Source of the DNA: a virus | Strand: one strand, 5' to 3' | Virus genome (UHGV): UHGV-1806156 | Length of the DNA stretch: 13,526 nt | Shown: piece after piece, positions 631 to 13,526 of the stretch | Layout: each line of letters opens with the position of its first letter | Position numbering within the stretch: position 1 is the stretch's first letter | The notes under the pieces: model-generated | Told to the model about the DNA's origin: nothing | What the model saw: only the letters and a program-made list of their open reading frames with translations | The model's database searches: none | Program-made: the position numbers and the translations under genes

Positions 631-780
631 GTGGAAATTACTGATGCAATAGCGATCATCAACCTGGCTGTACTGTGGTGCGGTGTTGCCTACATAGCCG
701 GAGTGACTGCAATCGACAATCTTGAAGAAAAAATGATAGATAAATACAAAAAGATTGTTGACAATTTGACGAATGTCTGA
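631..780 (+). CDS. Small ORF, 49 aa, GTG start, predicted single transmembrane helix (VEITDAIAIINLAVLWCGVAYIAGVTAIDNLEEKMIDKYKKIVDNLTNV)
   Basis: GGAGG at 621-625 sits 5 nt before GTG 631, stop TGA at 778-780. Hydrophobic N-terminal stretch. Below the 60-aa cutoff of the ORF track. Confidence 0.3.
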   Translation: MEITDAIAIINLAVLWCGVAYIAGVTAIDNLEEKMIDKYKKIVDNLTNV

Positions 781-786
781 TAAAAT
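758..786 (+). promoter_or_regulatory. Sigma70-like promoter candidate (-35 TTGACA 758-763, 17-bp spacer, -10 TAAAAT 781-786), likely driving the operon starting at 913
   Basis: Near-consensus hexamers with 17-bp spacing, about 125 bp upstream of ATG 913. Confidence 0.45.
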
Positions 787-1141: not shown

Positions 1142-2038
1142 ATGGCAAGTAATTACGGGGAGGTTTTTAATCCCCATTTCGAACGCCTCATTCAGTATAC
1201 TTTTGATAAACCAGTTGCAACAACAATTGCTAATAAAAAGACTGGAAAAACAAAAGAAAGATTTAAGTTAGACCTGACGGAGGTTACAATTTATGGAAAA
1301 ATGGCAGGTTTTCATTTAAACGGGCAAGAAATATTTATCTCAGAGCAGACCTTAGCAAAAATATGTGGAGTGAGCGATAGAAAAATCCGTGATTCGATTA
1401 AATCTCTAGAAAATGCCGGGCTTATTTCTAAAGATAATCGGAAAGGCATGTCTAATATTTACAAACTACTAATTACTCCTTCACAGGTTTGCAAAATGTG
1501 TGACGCTCAAGGAATACAACCTATGAGCAATGCAGGTGGTGAAGATAAACAGCCTCAGGAAGCCCCAAAACAAGCCGCACAGCAAGCTAAAAAGGCTAAA
1601 GTAGTGCAATTGCCTACCCAAGACACTAAAGCGCCTCAAATTAACGCTGTTAGTGACAAGCCACGCCGGGGCCGTCCTGTGAAAGATGTAACCGATGGAG
1701 GGTGGATCGCCCTGGGTGAGAGTGAGGCTAAAGGCATAATGCGATCACTGTGGGAAAGCAAATACAAAGATTTAAACAAACGTCGCCCGATCCTTTTGTC
1801 AAAGATTCAGGAGGATTTTTACACCACAGAAGAGGTAAGCCGACATAAAGGGAAAATAGAGGGTGAAATCTGGAAACCGGAAGAATACTGGCATTTAACC
1901 AGACCTGTGTTTATTTTTGCAAATAAGCTTATTGGGATGGGATTTGAAATATTGTTAGATAAAACCTGCGGAGATTATCCCGAAATATTGTGGAGAAATG
2001 TTAGAAAAAATAAAAAAGGCATTTTAGAGTTTAAATAA
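1142..2038 (+). CDS. Putative replication initiator-like protein with winged helix-turn-helix, 298 aa
   Basis: ATG at 1142 preceded by GGGGGA RBS, right after the stop of the 913 ORF; the track's 1085 start is an upstream in-frame extension. The segment FISEQTLAKICGVSDRKIRDSIKSLENAGLISKDNRKG resembles the wHTH of phage and plasmid replication initiators. Function from motif recognition only. Confidence 0.45.
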   Translation: MASNYGEVFNPHFERLIQYTFDKPVATTIANKKTGKTKERFKLDLTEVTIYGKMAGFHLNGQEIFISEQTLAKICGVSDRKIRDSIKSLENAGLISKDNRKGMSNIYKLLITPSQVCKMCDAQGIQPMSNAGGEDKQPQEAPKQAAQQAKKAKVVQLPTQDTKAPQINAVSDKPRRGRPVKDVTDGGWIALGESEAKGIMRSLWESKYKDLNKRRPILLSKIQEDFYTTEEVSRHKGKIEGEIWKPEEYWHLTRPVFIFANKLIGMGFEILLDKTCGDYPEILWRNVRKNKKGILEFK

Positions 2039-2085: not shown

Positions 2086-2232
2086 ATGTATGGCGATTTT
2101 GATTATTACCTGGAAAAGGAAAAATATTTTGAAGATGAACTATCACAACATTTTTCATATTGGGAAGAATATTGTGGTTGGTTAGCTGAAGATCCAGCAG
2201 ATGAAGAAAACGATTCTGACATCCCTTATTGA
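2086..2232 (+). CDS. Small acidic ORF, 48 aa (MYGDFDYYLEKEKYFEDELSQHFSYWEEYCGWLAEDPADEENDSDIPY)
   Basis: ATG 2086 with AAGGAAA RBS about 6 nt upstream, stop TGA 2230-2232. Strongly acidic and aromatic-rich. Below the ORF-track cutoff. Confidence 0.35.
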   Translation: MYGDFDYYLEKEKYFEDELSQHFSYWEEYCGWLAEDPADEENDSDIPY

Positions 2233-2316
2233 TATCCCCAAATAAACTAAATAAATAAACTAAGCACTAGAACTAGATTGATTGCCCTGATCTTTTAAAC
2301 GTTCGGAGAATTAATC

Positions 2317-2805
2317 ATGTTCAAATCTAATCTTTCTGATTCTCAATTCGAAAAACTGGTAGCACTGCAGAAATATCTTCCCAGTGATGATCAACCAACA
2401 CGACAGGCTAAACACTTATTAGTCGAGGGCTTTACCCCTGAATTCGTGGCGGAATATACAGGCGTTAAACTTGATAAAGTCCAAAAACTATATAATGAGT
2501 CCTGGAATCCACGGTGTCGAGTTCCCCTCAGTGTCTATAACGACATAGATAGAGATAAAAATGTCTTCGAAGATCGCCGCCGCAAATCTCTTTTAATGTG
2601 GAATTGTGGGATGAATATTGAAGAGATAGCAAAAGAATTAAAAGTAACCTGCTTTCATATATGGGGCTTGTTGAGTGAAATCCTGCCACGTAAGGAGCTT
2701 AATCAACGTTTGCCTAAGCCCGGTAGTCGTGCTTATCGCGAATTTATATTCATCTACCGCCGCCATAGAAATAAAGTCCAGAAAGCAATGGCCCAGAAAG
2801 CTTGA
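2317..2805 (+). CDS. Putative DNA-binding regulator with two HTH-like segments, 162 aa
   Basis: GGAGA RBS before ATG 2317. Two segments with HTH character: GFTPEFVAEYTGVKLDKVQKL and GMNIEEIAKELKVTCFHIWGLL. Confidence 0.5.
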   Translation: MFKSNLSDSQFEKLVALQKYLPSDDQPTRQAKHLLVEGFTPEFVAEYTGVKLDKVQKLYNESWNPRCRVPLSVYNDIDRDKNVFEDRRRKSLLMWNCGMNIEEIAKELKVTCFHIWGLLSEILPRKELNQRLPKPGSRAYREFIFIYRRHRNKVQKAMAQKA

Positions 2806-2878
2806 GTTTTATCTCTTCGATTTATTTATTTTCGACTCACTTTAACCCCTTCCGGGGCTCTAATTTAAGGAATTCCAA

Positions 2879-3322
2879 ATGTCTCAAATCGCTAAATTAT
2901 TATCCCAGGTTATCAAAGCTATCGACGCTGAAGATTCAAAAGTTCGCCAGGATCTTTTAGATGGCAAGTTTACCAACACCCTGGCATTTACCCGTGACAA
3001 AGAGCACTTCTTAAAACACAGGCATCACGCTTTTCCTGAATGCAAGTCCGCTAATGGTGATGTTTTCTATGTCGATTTGGTGGTTATGGCATGTAGGCTG
3101 TGGATGATTCAGGACCTTATGCGCCAACACGGTGATGATCCTCTTATCAGCATGTGGAACAGCGCCCAGGATGGCTTTGTGATTGCTGCCTTATCCAAAT
3201 CAATGATTGAGGCAGAAGGGGCAAGCCTTCAGAACATGGCAGATCTCTTTGAAATAAGCGTAGGAATGATGCAGACCATGCTCCAAGCTGTCAAACCTCT
3301 CAAACTGGTTAATCTTGATTAA
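2879..3322 (+). CDS. Hypothetical protein, 147 aa
   Basis: AAGGA RBS before ATG 2879; no recognisable family. Confidence 0.55.
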   Translation: MSQIAKLLSQVIKAIDAEDSKVRQDLLDGKFTNTLAFTRDKEHFLKHRHHAFPECKSANGDVFYVDLVVMACRLWMIQDLMRQHGDDPLISMWNSAQDGFVIAALSKSMIEAEGASLQNMADLFEISVGMMQTMLQAVKPLKLVNLD

Positions 3323-3767: not shown

Positions 3768-4004
3768 ATGAATACCTACGAAAAGATTTATCAAAAACTG
3801 GTTAAGGACTCCGAAGACACGCCCGAAGGGGTGACAGTAGGTCACCTGCCAGAGGCAGCGAAAGAGGGGGCCACCATTATTAAAAGTGGCTCCCACACAG
3901 AAGGCCTCTCAATCGAAGAGCTGGCGGAGAAATATAATATTGATAAAGAGGCCCTGAAAAGGGCTATTTCATTATCAAAATCTTTAAGACAGGGCGAGGT
4001 ATAA
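3768..4004 (+). CDS. Hypothetical protein, 78 aa, translationally coupled between the acidic protein and the tape measure gene
   Basis: Starts 1 nt after the preceding stop and ends 1 nt before ATG 4006. Confidence 0.45.
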   Translation: MNTYEKIYQKLVKDSEDTPEGVTVGHLPEAAKEGATIIKSGSHTEGLSIEELAEKYNIDKEALKRAISLSKSLRQGEV

Positions 4005-4005
4005 A

Positions 4006-6153
4006 ATGGCAATGAAGGAAGTAGCCAGACTAACAAACGTTATTTACTGGGACTCTGATAAATCCTCCTGGCGAAAAGAAGTTAAACGGCTTGAGGATTA
4101 TAAAAAATCCTGGAAGAAAGCTACCGACGATATAGCTAAAGCTGATTTTAAATCTAATCAGGCTGTGCTCAGAACACAAAGAACACGCGCTAAGGTGGAA
4201 GAGCAGATAGCCAGAGCTCAGAGGAAACAACAGGAAGCACAGAAGAAACAACGTGCTCAGGCTGTCAGCCGTCTGACCGGGGGCAACAATGCCGAACTTA
4301 ACTCTATGCGCAAGTTCTACCAACAACAAGCCAGAGAAGCCGCCAGACAACAAAAACTGTTAGATCGTAGTGTTGGAGATGTTCAGCACAGAAAAGCACG
4401 TGTAGGGGCCAACAGTGCACGAATCAGCAGCATGTTTGATGGCTCCCTGGTTGCTCAGTTCCAGGGGCGCATTCAAAGAGTTAATGCTGATTATGCTAAA
4501 GGGGCTATAAACCTGCAGACCTATAATCAGAGGATGGCCCGACTCAGATCTGAAATGAAGATGGCAACAGCCGAAGCCGGAAAATTCCAGAGCAGACTAG
4601 ACAGAGCTGCGGCCGCAGGCTCCAGGCTGCATGACAACCTGGGGAAACTGAATTCCACACTGGGCAAGATAGCCATTGGCCTTACTGCCGCTGGCTGGGG
4701 TGTTCAGCGTGCTGTTAGTGGTGCTATGGGTAGCCTTGCAGATCGCAACAGTGCTTATTTCGGCTTAATGTCACAGAACAAGGATGATAAATCAAAAACT
4801 GATCAGCAGATGGCTTTTATCAAGAACACAGCCTACACCTACGGGATGGATCAGCGTGAGATGGAAGGCGGCTACATGCGCTTTGCTGCAGCTACCCCCA
4901 CCATGAAGGAATCTGATAAGCAGGCTCTCTTTGAGGCTATGGCTATTAAAGGCCGCTCAGTGGGTGCTACTGGCGAGCAACAGAACAGGGCGCTTGTTGC
5001 GGTCCAACAAATGGCTTCAAAAAATAAAGTCATGGCGGAGGAGCTGCGTGGGCAGCTGGCAGAAGCCTTTGCAGGCTCACAACAGGACTTCCAACAGGCC
5101 GCTATTGATGCCGGAATCATCAAAAATACCCAGGAATTCGATAAAGCCCTTAAAGATGGCAAAATCACCCTGGACAAGCTACTTCCTTCCCTAGTGAAAA
5201 TTTGGGGTGCTGCAAAAGAAACTAAAGCTTTTGCTGAATCCATGAAACAGCCAGAAGTAGCAATGCAGCGCATGAAAAACAGCTTTAACGAGCTGGCGAT
5301 TCAGTTTATGGGTGTTGTGGATCCTGCGGATGGCGTTATTAGCTTATCTGAATCTCTGATCTCCATCTTTGAAGACCTCACCACTGATATGGACGGCAGC
5401 GGGAGCGCGGCAAAACAGTTCGGTGAGGCAGTCGGGTCTGCCATGCGTGAGATCATGTATTGGGTAGGCTTCGCTAAGGGATATATTGAGGTCAAGGCTA
5501 AAGAGTTCGGCATGACCGGATCAGAGGTTGGCGAGCTTATCGGGAAACTGGTAGTCGGCTTAGCTGGTCTGAAAGTTATTACCACACTGCTTTCCCCTCT
5601 AACCGGATTTGTTTCACTTGTCACCCAACTGATTTCTCTGATAGGCAAGATTCCAGGTCTGGGCAATCTCGTTAAGGGTGCTGGCGGGGCAGTCGCTGGA
5701 AGCCCAACAACAGCATTAGCCGCTGGCAGTGCCGCAGGTGTGGGTGTTGGTGTCGCTGGCGCACTAGGCGCTAAGACGGTAGGTGAGAAGTTCAGAGGAT
5801 GGATGCAAAGCAAGGCTGATCAGTTCGGGGAGTGGGCTAAATCTAAAGGCCTGCTTAGCGATGAACAGGACGCTATGACCAAACCGGGGGCCTATAACCA
5901 TAGCTACATCAACAAGGGAGCTTCCTTTAATCCATATCCAACCATTAGCCCTTCACGTCCTACTCCTAGCACTGGTACGGCTATTCAGAATGGCGGATAT
6001 CAACCAGTCCAAGTAAATGTAGCCCCACAAGGTGAGATTTCCGGCAAATGGGAGATAACCATCGATGAGGGGGGAATTGCCAGGGTGATCCAGAAGGAAG
6101 TTAGCGATCAGTTGGATTGGAAAGCCACACAGGAATCTAACCAGCTTTTCTAA
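4006..6153 (+). CDS. Phage tail tape measure protein-like, 715 aa
   Basis: Long Q/R/K/A-rich helical N-terminal region, a central segment that reads like a tape-measure domain (AAATPTMKESDKQALFEAMAIKGRSVGATGEQQNRALVAVQQMASKNKVMAEELRGQLAEAF), and a Gly/Ala-rich hydrophobic block (LAGLKVITTLLSPLTGFVSLVTQLISLIGKIPGLGNLVKGAGGAVAG...). Recognised by eye, not by search. Confidence 0.6.
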   Translation: MAMKEVARLTNVIYWDSDKSSWRKEVKRLEDYKKSWKKATDDIAKADFKSNQAVLRTQRTRAKVEEQIARAQRKQQEAQKKQRAQAVSRLTGGNNAELNSMRKFYQQQAREAARQQKLLDRSVGDVQHRKARVGANSARISSMFDGSLVAQFQGRIQRVNADYAKGAINLQTYNQRMARLRSEMKMATAEAGKFQSRLDRAAAAGSRLHDNLGKLNSTLGKIAIGLTAAGWGVQRAVSGAMGSLADRNSAYFGLMSQNKDDKSKTDQQMAFIKNTAYTYGMDQREMEGGYMRFAAATPTMKESDKQALFEAMAIKGRSVGATGEQQNRALVAVQQMASKNKVMAEELRGQLAEAFAGSQQDFQQAAIDAGIIKNTQEFDKALKDGKITLDKLLPSLVKIWGAAKETKAFAESMKQPEVAMQRMKNSFNELAIQFMGVVDPADGVISLSESLISIFEDLTTDMDGSGSAAKQFGEAVGSAMREIMYWVGFAKGYIEVKAKEFGMTGSEVGELIGKLVVGLAGLKVITTLLSPLTGFVSLVTQLISLIGKIPGLGNLVKGAGGAVAGSPTTALAAGSAAGVGVGVAGALGAKTVGEKFRGWMQSKADQFGEWAKSKGLLSDEQDAMTKPGAYNHSYINKGASFNPYPTISPSRPTPSTGTAIQNGGYQPVQVNVAPQGEISGKWEITIDEGGIARVIQKEVSDQLDWKATQESNQLF

Positions 6154-6204
6154 TATTGTGATCAAAATCAATAAGTTAGCCTGACCGGATAAACTCCAGG
6201 CAAG

Positions 6205-6242
6205 AAAAAAGCCCCTAAGTGTTAACAAAGGGGCTCTTCTCC
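6205..6242. terminator. Hairpin terminator between convergent operons (stem AGCCCCT 6210-6216 / AGGGGCT 6229-6235)
   Basis: 7-bp GC-rich stem with 12-nt loop. On the minus strand it is followed by a run of six T (plus-strand A 6205-6210); on the plus strand by a weaker T-rich tract. Confidence 0.5.
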
Positions 6243-6266
6243 GGTATCCTTTTGATGCGGGGCGAA

Positions 6267-6310
6267 CCTGCTAACAAAAATCAACCTCTCGCGAGACTAA
6301 TGTTAGCAGG
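6267..6310. other. Stem-loop with perfect 10-bp stem (CCTGCTAACA / TGTTAGCAGG) whose 24-nt loop carries TCAACCTCTCGCGAGA
   Basis: Inverted repeat read directly. The loop contains the 10-bp palindrome TCTCGCGAGA and matches the leader motif at 10547 and 11089. Confidence 0.4.
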
Positions 6311-6655
6311 TTGCCGGAAGGTAAGTCAACTCCGGCCTATAAACCTTAAAGCGACTATAAAATCGCCCCGCCAATTGTGATGATCCGACCTTTGAGGCGG
6401 GTCCGGTGCCCAGGGGGGTGCAGTGATGCACAAACCAGGCAACGATAAACAGGCTAACAGTGATAGCGGCGCTCTCTCAGCGCACTAAATCCTAACCAGT
6501 CCGGGAAAGAGGCTGGCTCTATCGACCGCTCATGCACGGGACAATGCATACCTGATAAAGGATTCTCACAAGGGACCAATCGCGAGAAAAAGAAGTGGAA
6601 AGGGGCTGATTTGTGGTGTATCACTACGGCCTCAAAAGAACACTATTGTCTTTTT

Positions 6656-7114
6656 TCAGCCTCTCCCAACATTTGACCAGTATTTGATTGCACCGATCAA
6701 ATCATCATAGTGGCGCATTGCATCATTGAAGCCTTTATAGCTTGCCCATTGTGGGGAAACCTTGTTATTGCTGAATTGCCCACTAATCAGGATAGTCTCC
6801 AGAATGTCGGCATATCGCTTACCAATACGCTTTCTGACGGCCTCAGAGCTCCCACCCTTTACGATTGCATTAATCAGGGCTTTTGTGTGTCTCAGGCTCT
6901 CATAGAGCATTGCAGCGTGGGCAGATTCCATAAAGGAGCGCTTAGGCAAATCACCCCACCCCTCAGAGTGGATAGCCGCCAGTGTGGCGTAATTCAGGCC
7001 GCTATAGTGCTTTCCGTCATCCCAGCCAACCGCTACACCTTCCATCTGTGAGAGCTCTTTATGCAGCTTATCCATCATGCGCTTGTCTATGGTGCAACGG
7101 ACTTTCGGACTCAT
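6656..7114 (-). CDS. HK97 gp10-like head-tail (neck) family protein, 152 aa
   Basis: Segment GVAVGWDDGKHYSGLNYATLAAIHSEGWGDLPKRSF fits the pattern I associate with the HK97 gp10 family. GGAG RBS upstream; ATGA overlap with the preceding gene. Confidence 0.45.
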   Translation of the reverse strand: MSPKVRCTIDKRMMDKLHKELSQMEGVAVGWDDGKHYSGLNYATLAAIHSEGWGDLPKRSFMESAHAAMLYESLRHTKALINAIVKGGSSEAVRKRIGKRYADILETILISGQFSNNKVSPQWASYKGFNDAMRHYDDLIGAIKYWSNVGRG

Positions 7115-7914
7115 TTGTTGATCTCCGTGATGTCATCAAGCAACATGTTGGCCTTATCAATCATCGTTTCGTGGAATTCATTCGACACAACAGACTTATC
7201 ACCTGCGGCAATCTTTCCAGCTGCCTCTCCCTGTGCATATTCCCCGCGATGCTTAGCCCTGGTAGATTTCGTAGCAGCATTGCCAGCGTTACTACCCTCT
7301 TTAGCACTGTTAACAGCACCCTTTTGCTGTGTTTTATTCACCTTCTTACTGTTAGTGAAAACTCCGGCATTTTCGACCATCTTCACCTTGAAGGTGCGGA
7401 ATTCTTCAAAGGTGCAATCGATAGTGATGCAGTCACCGGAGGAAGAGCTACGCTTAACTTCACATTTCGTCATGATGAAGTTCTCAAGGAGTCCGGCATC
7501 TTCACTCACCAGGCTAACCAGCTGGCGCTTGTCTCTCATTTCCATAAGTGCCTGAACAGCGGCAGCAGGGCGCATAGATTCACGGGGATTATCTGGATCA
7601 GTGTTCCGGTCGATGTAGTTCTCTTTCCGGATAATGTGAGGGGAAGAGGTAATAATACCCGTAAAGCTGACAGATTTATCTTTAATGACGGCATGGTCTG
7701 ACATGGTGGTGCCATCTTCTACTGCATAGCTCGACTTTTCGACAGGGAACGAATAACGAACATCAGAGATAGAGTCAAAGAAGATAGCCACATTATCGGT
7801 ATAGTTGAAGCCATCCATTATATTTTTGTTTTGTGAATATCCCCCACACATAACAGTGAATGCGGGAGATCTCGACTCAGCTTGTTTTGCAGCTGTCAGA
7901 GCATCACTAGCCAT
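7111..7914 (-). CDS. Hypothetical protein, 267 aa (start placed at the ATG at 7914)
   Basis: Minus ORF 7111..7941 begins at a GTG; the in-frame ATG at 7914 has GGAGG 10 nt upstream. Normal amino-acid composition, unlike the Cys/Ser/Leu-rich plus-strand ORFs it overlaps. Confidence 0.55.
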   Translation of the reverse strand: MASDALTAAKQAESRSPAFTVMCGGYSQNKNIMDGFNYTDNVAIFFDSISDVRYSFPVEKSSYAVEDGTTMSDHAVIKDKSVSFTGIITSSPHIIRKENYIDRNTDPDNPRESMRPAAAVQALMEMRDKRQLVSLVSEDAGLLENFIMTKCEVKRSSSSGDCITIDCTFEEFRTFKVKMVENAGVFTNSKKVNKTQQKGAVNSAKEGSNAGNAATKSTRAKHRGEYAQGEAAGKIAAGDKSVVSNEFHETMIDKANMLLDDITEINK

Positions 7915-8042
7915 AGTAAACATGCCTCCAAATTGGTCCACTTCATGGATTTGGCTAAAGCCAAACCTGCAAAAGATGCAGGCAAAATAGAACTTATCGT
8001 TGCCCTGCGTGAATTCTGATAAAAAGACAGGGCTATCTATCG

Positions 8043-8303
8043 TTATTTTGCAAAACGATTATGCGCATTCAGGGCTTTTTTGCGGTCCTGGGCTTGTTTG
8101 CGTGCAATAAAATGTTCGAAAGTCTCGGCCCAGGTGCATTTATTATATTCACGGTATTTATGCATAGCCTGGCGGCTAACGTCATAGCAGGCGGCAAATG
8201 TGGAGATACGCAGGAATTCCGGCAGATCCTCGTCATCGATATGGATAATATCAAAAGGCACGTCGTCACGGTCGCCGTATAAAACAATTTTCATAAAAGA
8301 CAC
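8043..8303 (-). CDS. Small HTH DNA-binding protein, 86 aa
   Basis: GAGGTG RBS upstream of ATG 8303. HTH-like segment LRISTFAACYDVSRQAMHKY. Role unknown. Confidence 0.5.
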   Translation of the reverse strand: MSFMKIVLYGDRDDVPFDIIHIDDEDLPEFLRISTFAACYDVSRQAMHKYREYNKCTWAETFEHFIARKQAQDRKKALNAHNRFAK

Positions 8304-8327
8304 CTCAAAAACTTAAGACGGGGATAA

Positions 8328-8377
8328 CAAAAAAGGGAAGAGGGAAAGACCTATCCCCGATCTCTCACCTCTTCCCT
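8328..8377 (-). terminator. Hairpin terminator just downstream of the capsid gene (stem AGGGAAGAGG 8334-8343 / CCTCTTCCCT 8368-8377)
   Basis: 10-bp stem followed on the minus strand by a T run (plus-strand A 8328-8333), immediately after the capsid stop at 8384-8386. Confidence 0.45.
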
Positions 8378-8383
8378 TTGCTT

Positions 8384-9418
8384 TTATTTAGCCTTGGCAG
8401 CGGCGGCGGTGTTTTTAACACTCACTTTCACCACAACTTCAGGCATCATGTTCATGAAAGCATAAGAGGATTCAACGAAGATTTCGCGTTTGCCTCTGGA
8501 CTCTTCCATATACATGAAAGCTTCACGTGCAGCGCCGTTTGCCAGCTTCAGGTTGCGAGCGCAAGGGCCGAAAAATTGAGTATAAACGCCCACCATATCG
8601 CCTAACGCATGCGGCTGGAACTGTGGGACTAGATAAGCAGTATTCTCTGGCAGACTATCCATTTGCACCACACGCAGGGCTAAGCCCGGAATGCGGAAGG
8701 TCGGGAAGCCCGGCAGAATATCCTCAGGGAACATCAGACCTTTGTCGGTAATGTTCTGATTGCCGAACAACAGCACTTTACGGAGCAGTTCATCAGTCTG
8801 AATAGCGGTAAACAGTTCAGCACGGCAGAACAGGGTGAAACCACGCAGGGCACGAACGACACCACGCTGTTTAACCTTGCTCAGTGCAACCAGGTCCTGC
8901 AGCTGTTTAAGGATATCTTTAGCTAGATCCACTTCTGAAGTGGTTTGCTGTGCGCCCAGCAGTTCGCACACATTCAGTTCTTTACCCTTGGTGAGGATAA
9001 TTTTGTTCTCAAAGAGAGCAAGCTGGCGTGCTTCTTCGTGGGTCTGGCGTAAGCCTTCGCCAAGCTGAATAACACGACGAGCGGTTACAGACTCTAGATT
9101 CTCTTCGGAATCTTTGCCCGGAACACGGATACCCTGCCAGTCAGAAGGATAAATAGCACTTGATGCGGCAGTGAATGCCATATCACCCGTGCCCGTTTCA
9201 CGCTCATCTGCGGTAATGGTCGCCATCTGTTCACCGTAGCGCGGATACTGACCGAAAGCGGTTTGTTTCACCTGGCGAACTTTGTCATATTCAAATTTAA
9301 AGGTATTGCACAGAGCAGTAGTGTTGAAGATATCCATTGCAGAAATAATCATGTTATCCGGCGGGATATCTTTAATCAGACCACACAGATCGCGAACTTC
9401 GAATTCTTTCTTAGCCAT
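8384..9418 (-). CDS. Major capsid protein, lambda gpE family-like, 344 aa
   Basis: ATG at 9418 with AAGGAGG RBS 8 nt upstream; the track's extension to 9517 has no RBS. N-terminus FEVRDLCGLIKDIPPDN fits the L-x-G-x-[IV]-x-x-x-PP pattern seen in gpE-family capsids. Size (lambda gpE is 341 aa) and a small beta-rich gene directly upstream agree. Confidence 0.6.
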   Translation of the reverse strand: MAKKEFEVRDLCGLIKDIPPDNMIISAMDIFNTTALCNTFKFEYDKVRQVKQTAFGQYPRYGEQMATITADERETGTGDMAFTAASSAIYPSDWQGIRVPGKDSEENLESVTARRVIQLGEGLRQTHEEARQLALFENKIILTKGKELNVCELLGAQQTTSEVDLAKDILKQLQDLVALSKVKQRGVVRALRGFTLFCRAELFTAIQTDELLRKVLLFGNQNITDKGLMFPEDILPGFPTFRIPGLALRVVQMDSLPENTAYLVPQFQPHALGDMVGVYTQFFGPCARNLKLANGAAREAFMYMEESRGKREIFVESSYAFMNMMPEVVVKVSVKNTAAAAKAK

Positions 9419-9429
9419 TTTCAACCTCC

Positions 9430-9765
9430 TTATTGTGCAACACGCAAATCGCCATTGCTGGCAGCAACAACAGCGGCTAAGCCGTCTTTGTCCACATAGG
9501 CCGGATTGATGTAGCAACCTTTGTTCGCAACAACGATAAAGGAATCACCAACTTCAGCACGTTCTACAACCAGCAGCGGAGTTTTATCTGTGTGCGTTGC
9601 TTTAACGAAGGTCTCAACCTCGCCAGCCTCAGTCACCACAACAACAGTGCCAGCCGGAATCTCAGCCTTAACTTTGTTTTTAACTTCAACGTCGCGAATA
9701 CTAAATTGCTCATCTGCGGCGTATGAAATGATGTGTCCGCGTGTGCGGATAGTCATATCTCTCAT
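9430..9765 (-). CDS. Putative head decoration protein (lambda gpD-like), 111 aa
   Basis: AGGTGA RBS before ATG 9765. Small, beta-rich (Val/Thr/Ala/Gly), immediately upstream of the capsid gene as in lambda D-E. Assignment is positional and compositional. Confidence 0.4.
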   Translation of the reverse strand: MRDMTIRTRGHIISYAADEQFSIRDVEVKNKVKAEIPAGTVVVVTEAGEVETFVKATHTDKTPLLVVERAEVGDSFIVVANKGCYINPAYVDKDGLAAVVAASNGDLRVAQ

Positions 9766-10268: not shown

Positions 10269-10546
10269 TTTACTCACATTGTCAACACCCTGATTATATA
10301 AATTCTAATAATTAGCGTAGTAACGGTATTTTCAGACTGCTATCAATCCCATCAATACGTCATCTCATCGCATCTATCATAACTTTTTCATTCGTGATAG
10401 ATATCTTTTGATCAATATCAATGTTTTCCGGGGATTTGCCCGGCTATAGTTCGAATCAAGGAAGGGGAGCATTGATAGAGACACCCAAAGGGGTGACTGA
10501 AAGTCACCTGGCATAGCCAGTGAAAGCACCCAACCGAACAAACAAA

Positions 10547-11722: not shown

Positions 11723-11750
11723 AGGGGGCCATCACGGCCCCTTTTTATTT
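11723..11750 (+). terminator. Rho-independent terminator after the signal-peptide gene
   Basis: GC-rich stem GGGGGCC (11724-11730) / GGCCCC (11736-11741) with 5-nt loop, followed by TTTTTATTT. Confidence 0.55.
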
Positions 11751-11800
11751 ATCCCCTATTTAACCCCTATTTAATGGGTATTTAATGCCTATTTATTGAT
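11746..11800. repeat. Five tandem 11-bp units of form TATTTAANNNN (helically phased A/T tracts)
   Basis: TATTTATCCCC, TATTTAACCCC, TATTTAATGGG, TATTTAATGCC, TATTTATTGAT read directly; an 11-bp period suggests bent DNA or phased binding sites. Confidence 0.5.
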
Positions 11801-13063
11801 TTAATCCGTTTTATGCCACAACCGCCCGGTTGACAGAGTAAGATAGAGTGTGTAACCCTCTTTCGTAATACCAATAAAATCAATAGTTTAGCTCAATTGG
11901 CCTTTTCTCTATTTTTGTCAAATTTAACATACCCTCAAAAACTGCAAAATCTGGCTGCAAGATTATCTGCAGCTGGATTTCTTGCGCCTCAATTTGTGGT
12001 ATCACCCTGACTAGTTTGTGCATAAATTGAACAGTTTTTAACATTTCCTCCTCACCTGGTAACCACACAAAAAGCTAAAAACGAGGCACAGATAATCTTA
12101 GAGGCCTGTTTTCTTGTTATCACTCTGGTAACGTCGTAGAAGTGATTTTGATGAAAGATGACCTACCCTATTACACCCCCATTTTTTGTTATCACAATTG
12201 CATCCTGTGCGGTGTATGGCTATGTGCTGAAAGCGGTCTTATGTGTGGGTGTCAGAAATATCCATTAGCGGTATTAATACCCGTCGGAGATTCGTCTGAG
12301 GTGCCAGGCAGGCGCTCCCCCACCTCCCTTTTTTCTTCTAACAATTCTCAAATATCACACCACTGCCCACCACGTTGCTATTATGTTAATTCTTAAGCTT
12401 TGCTGTATGTTGTGCACATTATTTATTCAGGTGGCTGTACGTAAATTCTGTGCCCACTGATCATGATTTTTAAATCAGATTTTGTAGTGCGCTTTATTAG
12501 TGTAGATAAGATCTATTATGTTAAATGCATCTCTCTCAACACTTAAAATCAATGACTTAGAGGTTAGGATGCACTAACACCCCACACAGCACATTAGACA
12601 TATAGATGTCTATACCCCACATTTTTGATTGTTTTGTAGTCATTCCCCTGATCATTTAACCAGTATAGTTTGCTCCCTGCAGACCACAAAATCGGAATTT
12701 ACATCTGATTAACATAATCTGTTAGCATGATCACCATTACCCACACAACAATAACCACATGTAAGCCTCTTCAGGCAATTTATCGGCGTGTTGGTGTGAA
12801 CAGTCTTTCATGTTCTTTATGTATTCATTGTCCTGTGTGAGGGAAGGATGGACTGCCCCAGGGGCCATACTTATGATGCCCGGTCAACATACCTGTCGAT
12901 AAAATCAAAGGGTGTTGATCTGCATATTTCCCACACATGAGAGGAAATCAAAGCAAAGAGAGAGGAGAGAGGTTTGTTAGTCAAAATAGGTCAATAAGGG
13001 TGTATTTCCACACAGACATGATGAGATAACCTGTCGGTATTTCCTACAACTCTTGCACATACC

Positions 13064-13341
13064 CCGGAAGATTTTTCCGGTGTCTCCCACCTGTGAAGAA
13101 TTTTCACACCTGTAAATCCATACAGCACGGTAAAAACTACCGCACCACCTGTGAAAATATTTTACTACTCCCTTTAGTCATACCCCTTTCAGTCATACTC
13201 AGGCACCACACCCCGGTAAATATTTCCCTACCACCCCGGAGAATTTCTCCGGTGTCCAAGCTGTATCCAATACATACCCCGGAAAATTTCTCCGCACTAC
13301 TACGGAAGATTTCTCCGGTGTACCCCGGAAGATTTCTCCGA
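13064..13341. repeat. Iteron-like array of at least 8 copies of a 17-bp quasi-palindrome (consensus about CCGGARRATTTCTCCGG)
   Basis: Copies at 13064-13080, 13236-13252 (perfect palindrome CCGGAGAATTTCTCCGG), 13279-13295, 13302-13318 and 13325-13341, the last three spaced exactly 23 bp apart. Related variants at about 13094-13108, 13150-13164 and 13214-13226. Confidence 0.6.
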
Positions 13342-13428
13342 CTAATAAATAAAGTAATAGACCACACAATAGATCCCCCCTAACCCCCAAGGGGAATGGG
13401 GAGGGATCAGAGAGTGGGGAAGGTTTTC

Positions 13429-13526
13429 TAAGGGAAAAGCTTAACCCACAAATGAAAGCCTAAAGAGCATGAGCGACTCTTCAGGCAATCTGTGTGGGGA
13501 ACATCGGAGCAGTATGTGAAGTATGA
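13429..13526. repeat. Right copy of the 98-bp direct repeat
   Basis: Matches 1-98 with one mismatch (C at 13482 vs T at 54). Confidence 0.9.

Follow-up and report, generated by a model that had tools for sequence, protein, structure and literature searches.

The gene at positions 1142–2038 of the window, by which we mean the whole 13,526-nt stretch of DNA analysed here, probably encodes a theta-type replication initiator of RepA_N/O-like character that binds its own iterons as a dimer, and together these would form the untyped replicon of a family of ~13–14 kb phage-like Escherichia plasmids. The protein (Rep) consists of an N-terminal winged helix, a disordered linker of ~50 residues and a folded C-terminal domain without a known relative. 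Comparison across related plasmids suggests that the recognition helix of Rep reads the iterons sequence-specifically, and genomic context points to Rep as the protein that initiates replication: we take it to be the plasmid's initiator because the element is an autonomous circular plasmid on which neither other replication genes nor a ColE1-type RNA were found.

A phage-like plasmid and its rep operon

Bases 1–98 of the window recur at 13429–13526 apart from one mismatch, and the window is thus a single 13,428-bp unit plus overlap, with the end repeat marking the closure of the circle. Related records are circular and measure 13.2–13.7 kb. An alternative origin of the 98-nt repeat, as the att sites of an integrated island, was dropped, since the relatives are circular plasmids and an integrase is absent. 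Megablast of the window returned five plasmid records. Four are E. coli plasmids, circular and non-mobilizable, with a size of 13.2–13.7 kb and 92–94% identity; the fifth is a record of 39.6 kb holding three copies of the unit (95.6% identity). PLSDB gives no replicon type for these records. The family was present in 7 of 5,426 complete E. coli genomes, as a plasmid every time and with one record per genome, and chromosomal copies of the element were found at 0 places among the same genomes. It recurs in Escherichia, Shigella and E. albertii with a unit size of ~13–14 kb, and its stable carriage in isolates suggests that the plasmid is competent to replicate with host functions only.

Gene order in the family is conserved, running from the rep operon to a tape-measure gene (TMP_3) and then, on the opposite strand, to the genes for the neck, Dit-like/tail-tube-initiator and major capsid proteins. 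Searches of the plasmid genes against Pfam, PHROGs and NCBIfam found neither a further replication gene nor any gene for an integrase, a terminase, a portal or a partition NTPase, and Rfam gave no ColE1-type RNA at E ≤ 1, with two chance-level matches and no RNAI/ctRNA above threshold. The structural proteins are akin to those of rV5-like phages (50% identity for the Dit-like protein and 25% for the major capsid protein), and the only phages in which the structural genes have relatives are large ones such as rV5, a type that we take to be virulent. Megablast of the window against a phage collection gave 0 matches, and none of the 34 pattern matches from a scan of IMG/VR with the Rep alignment was confirmed. 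Our literature search found no specific description of this plasmid family, of rV5-like plasmid satellites or of the accession numbers. As a lead, the element that hosts rep, with its rV5-like capsid and tail genes, is more novel than the initiator itself.

The rep gene (1142–2038, + strand) runs from an ATG at 1142 to a TAA stop at 2036–2038 and encodes 298 residues, in line with annotated homologues of equal length. A program-made list of open reading frames begins it earlier, at a TTG at 1085; we place the start at the ATG because orf71 stops at 1128, GGGGGAAC precedes the ATG, and RefSeq annotates relatives with the same 897-nt gene. Homologues of rep fall into one hundred clusters, nearly all on contigs of ~13–14 kb, and annotation pipelines label the product only as 'helix-turn-helix domain-containing protein'. 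As the second gene of its operon, rep is transcribed away from the origin. The first gene, orf71 (913–1128, + strand), is conserved and has no family match, and the strongest sigma-70-like promoter 5′ of the operon is predicted at 758–786 (+ strand; TTGACA-17-TAAAAT, 11/12, with a TG extension) from its match to the consensus only. The interval between origin and rep contains a conserved junction sequence, ~450 bp without a convincing gene and two strong TTGACA promoters, and it also holds a hydrophobic ORF of 49 aa, a hairpin resembling a terminator and orf71. Directly 3′ of rep lies a 48-aa acidic ORF (2086–2232, + strand; C-terminus ...ENDSDIPY; WP_001682500 in the annotation of relatives), which is possibly a component of the replication module; the genes downstream of rep (48, 162, 147, 129 and 78 aa) gave no matches to replication families.

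Domain architecture and family matches of Rep

A sequence-only reading of the window had proposed an initiator-like winged helix-turn-helix protein at 1142–2038, and profile matches and a structure model bear this out. Pfam HTH_36 (PF13730) matches residues 45–95 of Rep, scoring 31 bits where the cut-off is 25 (E 2.3e-7), and also matches 33 of the 33 family members tested. An AlphaFold2 model built on a 33-sequence alignment contains a canonical winged helix (pLDDT 70–91), with helices at 45–58, 68–75 and 79–91 and strands at 64–66, 95–98 and 105–109. The N-terminal DNA-binding domain as a whole (residues 1–125; 1142–1516, + strand) comprises an N-terminal helix, a beta-hairpin and the winged helix, is modelled confidently over residues 10–125, and has its predicted recognition helix at residues 79–91 (1376–1414, + strand).

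Eleven of the 15 PHROG matches of Rep are to replication-initiation or O-like families, with a further one to a DnaD-like helicase loader; the best is phrog_270 (9e-11), and the O-like families range from 7e-9 to 1e-6. Sub-threshold DnaD_N and Phage_rep_O signals appear in 15 of the 33 family members. Foldseek places among the top groups for the N-domain the RepA_N N-domains 4pql, 4pt7 and 5kbj and the PLE RepA structure 4ro3; these matches are weak (E 7e-3 to 3e-2, target TM 0.45–0.52), with generic winged-helix regulators interleaved. No non-replicative family, such as an antirepressor, scored above threshold.

Assignment to a named initiator family was not obtained by sequence. RepA_N (PF06970) gave no match at E ≤ 0.1 in the window Rep or in 33 relatives, Phage_rep_O (PF04492) remained below its cut-off (15.4 bits against 28.7, E 0.028; best relative, E 0.0082), and an hhalign comparison of the Rep family with lambda O was insignificant (probability 0.07, E 0.7). 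Rep_3 (PF01051) matched neither the window Rep nor its relatives, and the tandem WH1–WH2 arrangement is absent from the model. Comparison of the Rep sequence and profile with PDB sequences returned only chance matches or generic winged-helix regulators (E ≥ 0.05). HTH_36 itself is not diagnostic of replication: gp094 of phage muut, for example, combines two HTH_36 domains with a MUG113/T5orf172 domain. Overall, Rep probably resembles a RepA_N/O-type initiator in its workings, and by sequence it is a member of HTH_36 only.

The winged helix is followed by a disordered linker containing PQEAPKQAAQQAKKAKVVQLPTQ (residues 126–180; 1517–1681, + strand; pLDDT 27–36; modelled as disordered over residues 130–180) and by the C-terminal orphan domain (residues 181–298; 1682–2035, + strand), which bears a YWHLT motif and belongs to type A among three homologous types. 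The C-terminal half had been described as unrecognised and basic, of which the first holds and the second needs shifting: the linker, with a pI of 10.1, is the basic part, and the C-domain is only mildly so (pI 8.95; 22 K+R against 19 D+E). Modelled alone, the C-domain folds with a pLDDT of 87 and a pTM of 0.80, and it is not a winged helix. A search of its profile against 1.84 billion representatives recovered only its own small family, two proteins of like architecture and a stand-alone protein on contig L018 (about five clusters); a further match, P0104, was discarded as a spurious repetitive protein.

The two folded parts of Rep appear to be exchanged as modules. The three C-domain types are mutually 28–36% identical, with the YWHLT motif common to all, and 11 of the 15 possible combinations of N classes and C types are seen among the main types, with N and C modules meeting at a conserved PQEAPKQA..QQ linker. 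On L018, an unrelated phage-like contig, the C-domain and an HTH_36 N-domain each have a gene of their own; the genes are two ORFs apart, and an ORF of 83 aa separates them. This argues that the domains are separable yet linked modules. Across the family, rep is the most variable gene (52–100% identity for the N-domain and 28–100% for the C-domain, against 94–100% for the backbone), and this hypervariability, together with the shuffling of N and C modules, is as expected for an incompatibility determinant. Tracking of structural-gene alleles by Rep C-type was considered and rejected, as the neck, Dit and major capsid proteins are ~82–100% identical across C-types.

The predicted origin and helix–iteron covariation

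Scanning the window for the consensus CCGGAAGATTTCTCCGG with up to 3 mismatches located iterons at five sites only (13064, 13236, 13279, 13302 and 13325), against 0.04 expected by chance, and 0 of 200 shuffles attained the observed count. Three cognate iterons stand in tandem with a 23-bp period (13279–13295, 13302–13318 and 13325–13341, + strand), with CCGGA..TCCGG arms; a fourth lies 43 bp upstream of this trio (13236–13252, + strand), and a distal fifth occupies 13064–13080 (+ strand). Each is dyad-symmetric about an A/T centre. These five substantiate the repeat array previously placed at 13064–13341, to which we add at least four non-cognate iteron-like palindromes (TGTGAAGAATTTTCACA, CGGTAAAAACTACCG, TGTGAAAATATTTTAC and CCGGTAAATATTTCCC; 13089–13232, + strand) that look like iterons from other classes of plasmid. 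A 34-bp AT-rich tract (13342–13375, 74% A+T), the predicted unwinding element, directly adjoins the last iteron; it contains the AT-richest 30-nt windows of 12900–13526 (13341–13375, about 75% A+T), and its position is conserved across all iteron classes. A conserved GC-rich palindrome (CCCCCCTAACCCCC/GGGGAATGGGG, 13373–13400) adjoins this tract.

Across the circle junction, (13428 − 13341) + 1141 = 1228 bp separate the last iteron from the ATG of rep, in agreement with the ~1.2 kb estimated earlier on the condition that the unit is circular, for which the 98-nt end repeat and the circular relatives speak. Repeat families are likewise absent from rep itself (1142–2038), as had been noted for the iterons. 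The separation had been regarded as an oddity; it is real but not anomalous for such initiators, because ori and repA are apart in the PLE satellite too, and as a matter of replicon layout it calls for no explanation by mechanism. The same CCGGAAGATTTCTCCGG scan (≤3 mismatches) found no cognate iteron near the rep promoter, and an autoregulatory operator there was dropped from consideration because the site is absent.

The relation between Rep and its repeats was examined across 20 family plasmids with a main-type Rep, window included; one more plasmid collected beside them, L007, has an unrelated Rep N-domain. All collected plasmids share one plan of 3–4 tandem repeats at 22–23 bp, then an AT-rich block starting CTAATAGATAA, then a GC palindrome, and the repeat sequence differs among plasmids while the AT block keeps its position. 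Among the 20 plasmids, seven recognition-helix variants pair with seven proximal iteron classes, with two SRPT-type helices common to one class. Helix SDRKIRDSIKSL occurs with iteron ACCCCGGAAGATTTCTCCG in the window, L003, L010 and L012; SDRKIIESIKTL with CTGAAGATTTCTCAC in L001, L016 and L017; RKDRGKIVSAIKSL with ACCTGTTGGAATTTCCCACA in L002, L005 and L011; RKDRGKIASAIKSL with ATATGCTGGGATTTCCCACAT in L023; SRPT[IV]I[KN][AS]IKSL with ACCTGTCAAAATATTTTAC in L004, L009 and L013–L015; TEKTVRSAIKTL with CGGTAAATATTTCC in L008 and L022; and TPKTVRTAI[HY]SL with GGTAAAAATTACCG in L006 and L024. Three of these plasmids (L022, L023 and L024) were obtained after the rule had been framed, and all three conform to it.

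Over the proximal 93 nt, pairs of plasmids with the same helix have an identity of 0.80 against 0.48 for pairs with different helices, a gap that 0 of 5000 label shuffles reached, with close kin among the 20 plasmids overstating the number of independent events. Linkage alone fails to explain the match between helix and iteron, because the intervening 1.1 kb recombines independently: between array and rep, the window is 97.6% identical to L001 and 95.3% to L009, which belong to other classes, and 82% to L010 and 80% to L012, which belong to its own. Iterons and rep lie 1.2 kb apart, and some co-inheritance is unavoidable. The finest contrast is offered by the Rep proteins P0016 and P0023, whose N-domains are told apart by only seven residues. 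Of these, three fall within the recognition helix (R84I, D85E and S89T; R84, D85 and S89 of P0016 correspond to R83, D84 and S88 in window numbering). P0016 is paired with CCGGAAGATTTCTCCGG iterons and P0023 with CTGAAGATTTCTCAC, the difference lying in the outer arms, and this specificity switch would map, from the sequence comparison, to R83I/D84E/S88T. The wing was rejected as a specificity determinant, since its variant (KDNRKGMSNIY or VVKSKGKSNHY) is independent of iteron class and L010 combines the alternative wing with the same iterons as the window.

Proposed mechanism, alternative roles and relation to known initiators

In the mechanism that we propose, the N-terminal winged helix would bind each semi-palindromic iteron (CCGGA-AGATTTC-TCCGG), probably as a dimer, a state suggested by the symmetry of the sites and by RepA_N structures. 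Three to four sites at 23 bp, or ~two helical turns, would line up the dimers along a single face of the DNA, which may be bent or wrapped as a result, and the adjoining 34-bp AT-rich tract would be expected to melt. The C-domain, held on a flexible tether of ~50 residues, may then recruit a helicase or primosome; that it does so is a guess about a fold that has no known counterpart. The partner is presumably host DnaB–DnaC or DnaG, because the plasmid is carried stably in isolates in which a helper phage is presumed absent. Searches against Pfam and PHROGs revealed no helicase-loader gene.

Three other roles for Rep have to be weighed against this, which even taken together we consider unlikely. 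As a copy-control, incompatibility or partition (centromere-binding) protein, Rep would bind the array without firing an origin, and host factors by themselves would start replication at another place. Tandem repeats are also what centromere-binding proteins bind, and these proteins too diversify alongside their sites; TubR is among the weak profile matches (E 0.1), and 12 DnaA-box-like 9-mers occur where 3.4 would be expected, several of them upstream of the array (12501, 12737 and 12894). However, no gene for a ParA-, ParM- or TubZ-type NTPase was found on the plasmid, nor were an alternative initiator or a ColE1-type RNA, the array adjoins the AT-richest tract in an origin-like manner, and the PHROG matches point to initiators; we regard this role as very unlikely. 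That Rep is a transcription factor, either a repressor or an activator, with the palindromes as its operators, would suit the dyad symmetry of the sites and the weak, sub-threshold matches to the GntR, MarR, CodY and Crp winged-helix families, among them a SlyA-like/MarR-family regulator at E 0.062 when the Rep profile is compared with solved structures; NCBI also names some relatives 'GntR family transcriptional regulator'. Yet every regulator family fell below its cut-off (GntR at 16.2 against 27, and all NCBIfam regulator families by far), a consensus scan of 12900–13526 found no sigma-70-like promoter inside the array, and the sole promoter-like match in or near the region, at 12849–12877, is weak (9/12). 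With no cognate site near the rep-operon promoters, and with four phased copies beside an AT tract forming an origin layout, regulation of transcription as the role of Rep is highly improbable.

Since the plasmid carries capsid and tail genes akin to those of rV5-like phages and no terminase, some route into helper capsids is needed, and Rep could be imagined as a small-terminase-like packaging-specificity factor that marks pac/cos and recruits the helper large terminase through its C-domain. Some small terminases join a winged-helix DNA-binding N-domain to a partner-binding C-domain, a layout like that of Rep. Against such a role, the terminase small-subunit/Nu1 family gave no match in Pfam, PHROGs or NCBIfam, Rep has a long disordered linker in place of an oligomerisation core, and at least seven DNA specificities combined with a single conserved structural backbone suit incompatibility better; the plasmid would still require an initiator, for which other candidates are absent, and we hold this role to be extremely unlikely. 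The sequence-only reading had itself allowed for a recruitment protein, here taken as the packaging factor, or a regulator in place of an initiator. Neither gained support: the scans found no cognate site at the rep promoter and no sigma-70-like promoter in the array, and terminase or partition signals were lacking.

With Rep read as a replication initiator, what is new here is a winged-helix iteron initiator with an orphan C-domain, an unusually clear natural specificity series and an untyped replicon; in other respects Rep is most likely a fairly ordinary kind of initiator. This assigns a replicon to a plasmid family for which PLSDB gives no replicon type. The series comprises at least seven matched helix/iteron pairs on a near-identical backbone, with one switch apparently down to three residues, and is suited to work on a winged-helix recognition code and on the origin of incompatibility groups. 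The orphan C-domain is a candidate for a new adaptor between an origin complex and the replisome.

A wider and more doubtful possibility, which we put forward tentatively, is that Rep and its origin are the maintenance engine of undescribed autonomous plasmid satellites, ~13–14 kb in size, of virulent rV5-like (Vequintavirinae) phages. The candidate satellites have genes of their own for the major capsid, tape measure, tail-tube initiator and neck, and lack terminase, portal and integrase. If the element is such a satellite, the Rep/ori module would permit persistence without integration, the three C-domain types could be adaptors through which the origin is coupled with various replisomes of host or helper, and the at least seven helix/iteron pairs could be incompatibility groups born of rivalry between co-infecting satellites, in which stand-alone N-domain paralogues and non-cognate iterons might serve as weapons or decoys.

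Compared with known systems, Rep would share an iteron-based theta replicon with the Rep_3 initiators of Gram-negative bacteria (RepE of F, pi of R6K and, in pPS10 and pSC101, RepA). In Rep_3 plasmids, iterons lie beside an AT-rich element and their specificity defines incompatibility, and classical asymmetric iterons are bound by monomers. Rep differs in having one winged helix and an orphan domain rather than WH1 and WH2, in its dyad-symmetric iterons, which imply dimer binding, in lacking an inverted half-iteron operator at its promoter, and in being encoded away from the origin. Lambda O has a DNA-specific N-half and a partner-specific C-half, as known from lambdoid hybrid phages, and Rep likewise consists of two modules joined by a flexible region. 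Ori-lambda, however, lies inside the O gene, whereas the window origin is 1.2 kb upstream of rep, and a P-like helicase-loader gene is absent beside rep. In ori-lambda, which we read directly for comparison, four dyad-symmetric iterons of 18 bp centred on an A-tract lie at spacings of 20, 24 and 23 bp; an A-rich tract comes next and a palindrome after it (PMC7466680), and the same succession of iterons, AT-rich tract and palindrome is seen at 13236–13400 of the window.

In fold, the best matches of Rep, though weak, are to RepA_N. The structures 4PQL, 4PT7, 5KBJ and 4RO3 represent RepA of the staphylococcal plasmids pSK41 and pTZ2162 and of the Vibrio cholerae satellite PLE, and RepA_N iterons take the form of semi-palindromic repeats in direct orientation that converge on a poly-A tract (PMC7145576). 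The N-domain of Rep has these among its top fold matches (E 7e-3), interleaved with generic winged-helix regulators; its iterons are of the same semi-palindromic, directly repeated kind and likewise converge on an A-tract, and covariation suggests that they are recognised by the N-domain; Rep differs in being unmatched by the Pfam RepA_N model. PLE RepA likewise has no detectable sequence similarity to RepA_N and was assigned by structure; for its variable C-terminal domain, too, no relatives are detectable, and the PLE ori sits in a non-coding stretch flanked by orf5 and orf7, with repA as orf11 (PMC7145576). Rep therefore shares with PLE RepA, from the satellite of a lytic phage, both a C-domain without relatives and an origin detached from its gene. 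The C-domain of Rep is, however, a different orphan fold that comes in three shuffled types, and whereas PLE RepA needs phage ICP1 to drive replication (PMC7145576), the window element persists as a plasmid in isolates presumed free of a helper.

Phage structural genes on a plasmid

Genes for tape-measure, neck, Dit-like/tail-tube-initiator and major-capsid proteins occupy window positions 4006-9765 of the plasmid, and among phages their products are most similar to those of rV5-like Vequintavirinae (50% identity for the Dit-like protein, 25% for the major capsid protein). No terminase, portal or integrase gene is present on the plasmid. Of the 5426 complete E. coli genomes, 7 carry a member of the family, as a plasmid of ~13-14 kb every time. 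One possibility is that the element is a plasmid satellite of virulent phages, of a kind not described before; the literature yielded no paper on one. One family record, L008 (NZ_CP043822.1, 39,610 bp), contains three unit copies arranged head-to-tail, one of them with disrupted structural genes; the arrangement is either a genuine multimer or an error of the assembly.

Regulatory-like sites and repeats around the rep operon and the iterons

Upstream of orf71, the first gene of the rep operon, we located, in the segment 567-795 of the window, a strong promoter-like site (TTGACA-17-TAAGAT) along with a GGAGG ribosome-binding site, both lying 5' of a conserved hydrophobic ORF of 49 aa (631-780; WP_157794903 in relatives). 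This ORF has no family match and may encode a toxin or else a small membrane protein. A terminator-like hairpin with a T-run (835-861) separates the strongest promoter (758-786) from orf71/rep and could act as an attenuator of rep expression.

The cognate iterons, i.e. those matched to the window's own Rep, are interspersed at 13089-13232 with single-copy iteron-like palindromes (TGTGAAGAATTTTCACA, CGGTAAAAACTACCG, TGTGAAAATATTTTAC and CCGGTAAATATTTCCC), which are the same as or similar to iterons that are cognate in plasmids of other classes. Such a mixed 'museum' of palindromes is found 5' of the plasmid's own tandem iteron set in every relative. Recombination relics, decoys and cross-regulation sites are all candidate roles for the non-cognate palindromes. 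DnaA-box-like 9-mers (at most one mismatch) are over-represented, with 12 found against 3.4 expected, and four of them lie in the non-coding stretch 5' of the iterons. The window also holds three copies of AAAATCAATnnnTTAG, which we take to match the IHF consensus; jointly, the two kinds of site are placed at 12017-12902 and at 6164, 11876 and 12545.

Further repeats are dispersed over the window. A 50-nt direct repeat (3815-3864 and 10477-10526, 80% identical) encloses a GGTGAC...GTCACC palindrome; one copy codes for DTPEGVTVGHLPEAAKE within a 78-aa ORF, the other is non-coding, and the DTPEGVTVGHLPEAAKE peptide motif recurs in the linker of the Rep of the family plasmid L007. Four copies of a 21-nt AAATCAACTTCTCGCAAAAGG-like motif (6278, 9783, 10544 and 11086), situated at gene-cluster boundaries, may serve as common sites for regulation or for a response to a helper. 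Short 11-nt tandem repeats, TATTTAACCCC / CCTATTTAATG, are found at 11746-11795, in the large non-coding region 3' of the 195-aa gene.

Winged-helix and acidic genes near rep

In some relatives, orf71 and rep are separated by an extra stand-alone winged-helix gene, devoid of linker and C-domain. The L002 copy (6882-7247) is paralogous to the N-domain of the main Rep; a second type is found in L010 (3520-4017), L011 (9464-9982), L016 (2858-3358) and L017 (6381-6881), and is frameshifted in L012. The extra gene in L023 (2530-2916) matches HTH_36. The second-type winged helix also forms the N-half of the L007 Rep (2187-3098). Three tandem ATATCAA-N2-TGATAT repeats, within a 500-bp insert, occur in L007 alone, and one such site lies within the stand-alone second-type gene in plasmids having that copy.

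Among phage proteins, gp094 of the Stephanstirmvirinae phage muut (L021 2090-3088) is closest to the Rep winged helix, with 39% identity to Rep aa 41-110; it is a 332-aa hypothetical protein with a MUG113/T5orf172 domain and two HTH_36 domains.

Directly 3' of rep, a very acidic 48-aa ORF (window 2086-2232) ends in ...ENDSDIPY. Its variants end in ...DSCIPY (L006, L024) or, only alongside Rep C-domain type C, in ...DDYYDEDY (sequences read for L010, L016 and L017); L023 has the same 53-aa ORF as these three plasmids. L007 has no separate acidic ORF, its own Rep ending in ...NDSAIPY, and the unrelated phage-like contig L018 encodes a 91-aa acidic ORF (...DDDMDGSPF) immediately 5' of its stand-alone C-domain gene. 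The ...ENDSDIPY end of the 48-aa ORF is reminiscent of the C-terminal tip of SSB.
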